The notes under the pieces were generated by a model that was given only the letters and a program-made list of their open reading frames with translations, had not been told where the DNA came from and ran no database searches. The translations under genes were made by a program, and so were the position numbers. Shown here in pieces: positions 37,796 through 38,210 of a stretch of DNA of 64,000 nucleotides (positions within the stretch are counted from its first letter, which is position 1; the number at the start of each line of letters is the position of its first letter). The DNA is from a phage, in assembly GCA_021683455.1 (NCBI GenBank), contig GCA_021683455.1_3051.1; one strand, given 5' to 3'.

Positions 37796-38210
37796 TCATT
37801 TCTTCTTGTGTTGAATATTCCAAGGTGGGTTAAACAGTTTAATGAATAGCGGCTCCTCTAGATCAATCGTTGCGATTGTCATTGTACCTAACTCATTTGT
37901 CATAGAAAGATTAAAACATTGGCGGGCGTAAAATTCAACTTTGCTTCCTTCCTTCCTTTAGCGCAGCATGAATTAATGCAGATTTAGTAGAATCAGACGT
38001 TTTGTCTTTACGGTTAATAGCAGTTCTATAATAGTTTATTCTTTTACGTAAATTTTTAGTTTTTCCAATATAAACAAGCTCATCATTTATAGCAATAGCA
38101 TAAATTACGTTATACTTGTTTGGAATAGATAATTGTTTTATACTTCCGTTGTCGTCTAATTCTAGCTCAGTATATTTAATAAATGAATATTCTGTTGCAA
38201 TTTCTTTCAT
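37796..38210 (-). pseudogene. denA: denA (endonuclease II) interrupted by a frameshift at a (GGAA)3 tetranucleotide run
   Basis: ORF from ATG 38210 carries the GIY-YIG-like motif (VIYAIAINDELVYIGKTKNLRKR) and stops at 37935 (...ALKEGRKQS*); the +1 frame continues [48 protein letters not shown] to 37796; junction is CCTTCCTTCCTT at 37947..37958. Confidence 0.55.

Follow-up and report, generated by a model that had tools for sequence, protein, structure and literature searches.

Our observations indicate that denA, the gene for endonuclease II (EndoII), has been broken in this phage by the gain of a single 4-nt repeat unit, and it is very probable that the resulting allele is a genuine loss-of-function mutation made by slipped-strand mispairing during phage DNA replication. 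The site is a recurrent mutational hotspot, and the split reading frame is most probably neither an assembly error nor a case of programmed recoding. In T-even phages, the breakdown of the host chromosome begins with the product of denA. The gene, the class of mutation and the exact mutation are already known, the last from T2m2, an escape mutant of phage T2. What appears to be new, and is modest, is that the same +4 allele is fixed, at the level of the assembly, in another Tequatrovirus and is found again in assemblies from metagenomes and in uncurated ones.

A Tequatrovirus genome with a split denA frame

The window, that is, the whole stretch of 64,000 nt that was analysed, is part of a Tequatrovirus (T4-like) genome, reaching from the end of gene 20 as far as gene 52. 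Over 20 kb, the best match in the phage collection was to the wastewater phage KMB42 (96.6%). The genes nrdA, nrdB, denA, rnlA and alc follow one another in this order, every one of them on the minus strand. The order nrdB-denA-rnlA is common to the window, KMB42, T6 and T2, and the position of denA between nrdB and rnlA, which is characteristic of T4 endonuclease II, is conserved. The features of the region are as follows.

38238-39416, minus strand: nrdB (ORF list of the window)
38214..38237, minus strand: hairpin between the nrdB stop codon and the denA ATG
37796-38210, minus strand: denA (ORF list of the window); disrupted locus of 415 nt, compared with 411 nt in relatives
37935..38210, minus strand: truncated reading frame of 91 codons; residues 1-87 native, then out-of-frame RKQS and TGA
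37944..37958, minus strand: period-4 tract AAGGAAGGAAGGAAG (coding strand), 15 nt, 3.75 units
37796..37945, minus strand: displaced C-terminal segment, S88-K136 plus stop, open in the +1 frame
36619-37743, minus strand: rnlA (ORF list of the window)

Re-reading of the minus strand places the denA ATG at 38210, from which frame 0 runs for 91 codons to ...ALKEGRKQS and a TGA at 37937-37935. The +1 frame reads onward as SKVEFYARQCFNL...NIQHKKK (SKVEFYARQCF...NIQHKKK), a remainder of 48-49 codons that ends with a stop at 37798-37796. Both halves had been described in these terms in an earlier inspection of the letters (hereafter the sequence-only reading), and both descriptions hold. Its account of the junction needs one amendment: the letters of the repeat at 37947..37958 (CCTTCCTTCCTT on the plus strand) are as it gave them, but the period-4 tract is slightly longer, covering 15 nt from 37944 to 37958. 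In relatives the denA tract is AAGGAAGGAAG, which amounts to 11 nt or 2.75 units. When any one 4-nt unit is deleted from the window, a single 411-nt ORF of 136 aa results, in agreement with the fused frame of about 136 aa that had been anticipated. Repeats of this kind are scarce in the window, where only two three-unit tetranucleotide repeats were found, the denA tract and (TCAA)3 at 12092.

The repaired product matches T4 EndoII (PDB 2WSH) over residues 1-136 with E = 1.2e-86 and is identical to it at 134/136 positions. The differences are S82A and E118A only, and E118A is an engineered change of the crystal construct. The repaired protein also matches PHROG 1111 'endonuclease' (1.8e-65) and scores 28.5 bits against the Pfam GIY-YIG profile PF01541, whose cut-off is 22.6. 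The match to 2WSH and the nrdB-denA-rnlA order substantiate the earlier assignment of the gene as denA. Against PF01541 the 91-aa fragment scores 28.2 bits, a match that involves residues 35-71 and profile positions 3-40 of 78 only; it retains the N-terminal region, with the GIY-YIG motifs (G49, R57) and K76. Residues R95, C97, E118, P127 and W129 are all encoded in the displaced C-terminal segment. A member of this family is expected to have a single uninterrupted ORF that includes the catalytic E118; in the window the frame breaks at codon 88 and E118 is encoded in the displaced +1 frame only. Judged from its reading frames, the locus is a disrupted allele of the EndoII family and not a functional member.

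The hairpin between nrdB and denA has a stem of 10 bp and a GCAA loop, with a minimum free energy of -18 kcal/mol (z = -3.3). The AAGGAG Shine-Dalgarno sequence of denA is paired inside it, and the denA mutation leaves it unchanged. A terminator is annotated at this site in some relatives; a simple terminator scan of the window did not call the hairpin. The structure could serve as a terminator, could affect RNA stability, or could keep the translation of DenA low or coupled.

Three repeat units are a derived state in a clean assembly

A search with 76 nt that have the tract at their centre gave 499 matching phage records, all of them in the 90-95% identity band, which means that all align with a 4-nt gap and have one unit fewer than the window; the three-unit tract was present in 0/499 of the phage records with this stretch. 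With a longer query, the 601 nt surrounding the site, there were 503 matching phage records, and the best matches listed span 597 bases of the record. Phage F25 is the nearest local relative (99.0% identity over 5 kb), and over the 601 nt around the site it differs from the window by 4 nt only. Relative to KMB42 and T6 the tract in the window is likewise a 4-nt insertion. Reference denA alleles with three units as their normal state, which the sequence-only reading had named as grounds for dismissing a mutation, are not what is seen: three units are a rare derived state.

The window was also compared with KMB42 and T6 at the ORF level and at the base level. Matches were obtained for 245 relative ORFs, and denA alone among the annotated genes changes frame. 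The remaining gaps whose length is not a multiple of three are intergenic or belong to compensated clusters in a divergent patch, and no uncompensated frameshift was found in other conserved genes of the 64-kb window, which argues that the assembly is not prone to indels. Beyond the break, the displaced C-terminal frame (48 codons from K89) is identical in amino-acid sequence to that of KMB42, T6 and T2.

The same mutation in a T2 escape mutant

Three studies from 2025-2026 have identified host-DNA degradation products as a bacterial alarm signal that phages escape by losing denA. In these studies T2, T4 and T6 escape the degradation-triggered defences Metis, PUA-Cal-HAD and PANGU via denA mutation, often a frameshift. 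T2m2 is a T2 escape mutant selected on PUA-Cal-HAD (bioRxiv 10.64898/2026.01.15.699771, Table S3). Its change was called from Illumina reads as denA G>GCTTC, 'frameshift at S88', and one of the two T2 escapers in Table S3 has this +4 change (bioRxiv 10.64898/2026.01.15.699771). PUA-Cal-HAD needs DenA-dependent DNA degradation, and the escape of T2m2 is the behaviour of a loss of function (bioRxiv 10.64898/2026.01.15.699771).

When G>GCTTC is applied to the T2 reference at 133503, it generates the (GGAA)3 tract of the window and the ...ALKEGRKQS* product. The two alleles share the identical CTTC insertion (plus strand), the same tract and the same product, and through T2m2 the window allele corresponds to a documented denA-null escaper. 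T2m2 arose under laboratory selection, whereas the window phage is known from sequence alone. The backgrounds are different as well: nine further nucleotides differ within denA, and identity across the region is about 95%; these nine differences and the ~5% regional divergence rule out that the window is T2m2 itself.

Other escapers hit the same gene at other positions. In the accessible part of the Metis study, the T4/T6 escapers are listed with the single substitutions V90G/E91A, R95C, E118K, P127L and W129S (bioRxiv 10.1101/2025.11.05.686725), the T4 positions, which refer to a 144-aa GTG-start annotation, being given here in the numbering of the 136-aa protein. T4 escapes PANGU through C97W, which lies at the subunit interface (bioRxiv 10.64898/2026.04.06.716658). 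As far as the accessible parts of these sources go, the Metis and PANGU escapers share with the window allele both the gene and the outcome, in that endonuclease II is lost and the phage is viable. Several of the escape mutations given in those parts fall in the C-terminal segment that the window allele loses. The changes listed there (1-bp deletion at K25, +AG at K76, +T at N31, missense) nevertheless differ from that of the window.

That denA is dispensable, as had been assumed from the outset, is supported by the viability of frame-disrupting alleles, the denA indel mutants isolated as CRISPR escapers (PMC8262927). Mutants such as nd28 are standard in the T4 laboratory strains T4GT7 and T4 I/S vectors (PMC12115623), and denA nulls abolish the first step of host DNA degradation (PMC8262927, PMC12115623, PMC2764454). 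In co-infection, denA-null T4 loses to the wild type (bioRxiv 10.64898/2026.04.06.716658). Classical T4 denA mutants (nd28 and others) and CRISPR-escape indels resemble the window allele in that a non-essential gene is hit and the phage remains viable; unlike it, nd28 and the CRISPR-escape indels are T4 laboratory alleles. A sequence of nd28 for comparison with the window allele was not found.

Natural carriers of the allele and their frequency

Other public contigs encode exactly the 91-aa truncated protein, and it was only an index of exact proteins from ENA and Logan assemblies that led to carriers of the allele. One carrier, a Logan assembly of SRR17762126 (26 kb), shares 100% identity with the window across 10,276 nt, contains (GGAA)3 and is, to judge by this identity, evidently the same phage. 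It is independent of the assembly of the window, at the level of the assembler only if the reads are shared. Three further carriers have the same tract.

ENA ERZ28577814: metagenome scaffold, 94.5% identity to the window
Logan SRR27217509: 97.1% identity to the window
ENA ERZ27232757: MEGAHIT-style metagenome contig, 98.1% identity to the window

An A39V variant of the truncated protein (P0005) occurs on two further contigs. Within the 505 nt compared, the natural +4 allele is found on four distinct haplotypes. About 130 bp around the tract are invariant, even in the intact T6, and for this reason recurrent mutation and recombinational transfer of a short patch are not separable among the natural carriers; their copies of the allele could have spread by recombination from one original allele. 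The displaced C-terminal frame is open in 4/4 carriers, amino-acid identical to intact relatives in three and with T110S in one. A displaced frame that is open and nearly unchanged implies that each +4 copy is young.

Both repeat numbers occur naturally: the two-unit tract is common, and the three-unit tract is seen in two metagenome and two SRA assemblies. By exact look-up, an intact protein identical to the repaired window allele is present on 771 contigs and its GTG-start form on 146. Set against these roughly 917 intact copies, the +4 allele (about 4-6 contigs) accounts for well under 1%. The exact look-up supplied the intact count, as the main cluster of intact Tequatrovirus proteins was missing from the output of a protein homology search. 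The exact three-unit pattern was absent in scans of IMG/VR, JGI metagenomes and GTDB genomes and had no match in complete E. coli genomes, and no mention of the carrier accessions was found in the searchable literature.

The 90% cluster that holds the intact DenA has a representative of 374 aa and consists mostly of RnlA (RNA ligase 1) sequences. The joining of the neighbours denA and rnlA appears to be a clustering artefact, which may explain why the homology search missed the main DenA cluster.

The +4 allele is accompanied by other truncated DenA forms in the same protein cluster of Logan and ENA sequences (P0003, P0006, P0007, P0009 and P0093). All five can be reproduced from wild-type DNA by simple indels, and two of the five indels flank the AAGG tract.

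8-nt deletion at CDS nt 265, directly adjoining the 3' side of the tract
loss of one A at CDS nt 252-254, at the 5' edge of the tract
7-nt duplication at CDS nt 193
1-nt deletion at CDS nt 225-228
AA duplication at CDS nt 186

For two additional truncated forms, P0008 and P0010, no single simple change gave an explanation. These sequences make putative denA loss-of-function alleles a recurrent, low-frequency feature of public Tequatrovirus sequence data.

Origin and consequence of the mutation

Streisinger slipped-strand mispairing is the classical mechanism of frameshift at tandem repeats. The window allele has the features expected of it: the indel is one whole repeat unit, relatives (499/499) have n-1 units, and the change has recurred, in one de novo laboratory event in T2 and on four natural haplotypes for which recombinational spread is possible. 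As in the T4 frameshifts of Streisinger, a whole unit has been gained at an existing tandem repeat, the site is recurrent and the change is reversible in principle.

What would the insertion do to the enzyme and to the infected cell? In the sequence of events that we propose, the ancestral 11-nt AAGGAAGGAAG gained one 4-nt unit and the frame shifted at codon 88. Translation would end four codons past the shift, leaving a 91-residue fragment without the last 49 residues, among them the subunit interface at C97 and the catalytic E118. The phage would then not start the degradation of host cytosine DNA that depends on endonuclease II. The substitution E118A abolishes EndoII catalysis (PMC2764454). 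Since single substitutions in the lost segment already inactivate the enzyme or confer escape, the loss of residues 88-136 should amount to a null. By analogy with the identical T2 allele, whose phenotype supports this interpretation, the window phage has probably lost EndoII nuclease activity. The allele may have become fixed in a setting where denA loss is tolerated in culture and positively selected by hosts that carry Metis, PUA-Cal-HAD or PANGU. Isolation or propagation on a host with such a defence would select exactly this +4 allele, and the parallel with T2m2 suggests that selection by a degradation-sensing defence may have acted on the window allele. Neutral fixation during laboratory passage is the alternative.

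Alternative explanations

The sequence-only reading had left a choice between slipped-strand inactivation and an assembly error at a short repeat. An artefact would mean that denA is in reality intact, with two units, and that the extra CTTC was introduced by sequencing or assembly. Short tandem repeats are a sequence class prone to indel errors, and the absence of the three-unit allele from the 499 deposited relatives and from the IMG/VR, JGI metagenome and GTDB scans is what an error would produce. The Logan assembly that is 100% identical to the window nevertheless reproduces the tract, three other samples processed by other pipelines carry the allele on different haplotypes, T2m2 has the same change by read mapping together with a phenotype, and the conserved genes of the window have no other uncompensated frameshift. 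The gain of a whole 4-nt unit is, moreover, not a typical homopolymer-type error. We consider an artefact very unlikely on these grounds, and the Logan assembly, the other contigs, T2m2 and the clean window favour inactivation. It is likewise very unlikely that the phage is a constructed or classical laboratory denA mutant, such as a cytosine-DNA phage or transduction strain, rather than a spontaneous one. The idea draws on the standard use of denA mutants (nd28) in T4GT7 and T4 I/S (PMC12115623). The window, however, is not T4: its nrdB and td are without introns and mobE is absent, its best 20-kb match (96.6%) is a wastewater isolate, the alc gene, a site of mutation in cytosine-DNA strains, is intact (168 aa), and two other carriers are metagenome assemblies. 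The evidence for the missing elements is that nrdB (392 aa) and td (286 aa) are uninterrupted (38238-39467 and 42263-43123, minus strand) and that nrdA and nrdB are only 51 nt apart, from which it follows that the window phage lacks the nrdB intron, the td intron and the mobE homing endonuclease. T4 has the nrdB intron. T6, unlike the window phage, has a td intron with I-TevI, plus mobE.

A slipped-strand origin of the extra unit would still leave room for readings in which the gene keeps its function, permanently or from time to time. Ribosomes might regain the frame within the repeat, for instance by a +4 peptidyl-tRNA hop, and make full-length DenA. Re-pairing over +4 from GAA to GAA (tRNA-Glu) or from GGA to GGA (tRNA-Gly) would recreate the wild-type KEGSKVEF, the zero-frame A-site codon after GGA is AGG, which is rare in E. 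coli, the tract is Shine-Dalgarno-like and the displaced frame is open in all carriers, features that on paper could assist such a hop. Against it, the split arrangement is not conserved (0/499 records, and about 4-6 contigs versus about 917), the identical T2 allele acts as a loss of function, the canonical slippery heptamer is absent, and truncating alleles that lack a repeat to re-pair on coexist with the +4 allele, as plain inactivation predicts. Programmed recoding is very improbable in our judgement, and trace leakiness is the most that we would expect. A reversible ON/OFF switch deserves somewhat more consideration, although we regard it as unlikely. The AAGG tract in Tequatrovirus denA would then act as a phage 'contingency locus', in which a change from two to three units would repeatedly yield denA-null subpopulations that survive Metis, PUA-Cal-HAD and PANGU hosts, and slippage back would restore the fitter nuclease-proficient state once the defence pressure is gone. 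Such a switch would accord with the occurrence of the same allele on four natural haplotypes, with its one de novo laboratory origin (T2m2) and with the open state of the displaced C-terminal frame, which is identical in 3/4 carrier haplotypes and differs by a single substitution in the remaining one. A tract so short (2.75-3.75 units) and an allele so infrequent favour a simple mutational hotspot instead. In bacterial tetranucleotide-repeat contingency loci, a large number of units and a high rate of switching are typical. The gain of whole units is common to these loci and to the denA tract, but a contingency locus is expected to have a long hypermutable tract, and that of denA, with 2.75 to 3.75 units only, is very short.

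Implications

The presence of this allele, and of several other denA truncations, in wild or uncurated assemblies suggests that denA loss is a real low-frequency natural polymorphism and not only a laboratory curiosity. That wild phages carry the allele is a hint that defences which sense the degradation of host DNA may select for it. For annotators, the practical consequence is that denA in the window should be marked as disrupted and not 'corrected'. A therapeutic or typing phage that is denA-null may leave the host DNA intact, a condition linked to a higher risk of transduction (PMC12115623).

Other differences between the window and its relatives

At 30555-30696, the window's matches to an unannotated 62-aa ORF that T6 has between rIII and 30.9 lie in two frames, and the window has a 44-nt deletion relative to T6; the difference is probably intergenic variation rather than a broken gene. 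A second departure from the relatives lies between uvsW and uvsW.1.

10122-11630: uvsW
11627-12319, plus strand: 230-aa ORF with an HNH-type motif (ETHHIIPRCMGG)
12333-12578: uvsW.1

The stretch 11627-12319 gave no alignment to KMB42, and with its HNH motif the ORF looks like an inserted free-standing homing endonuclease. The (TCAA)3 repeat, at 12092-12105, lies inside this ORF, where it is in frame and leaves the ORF intact.
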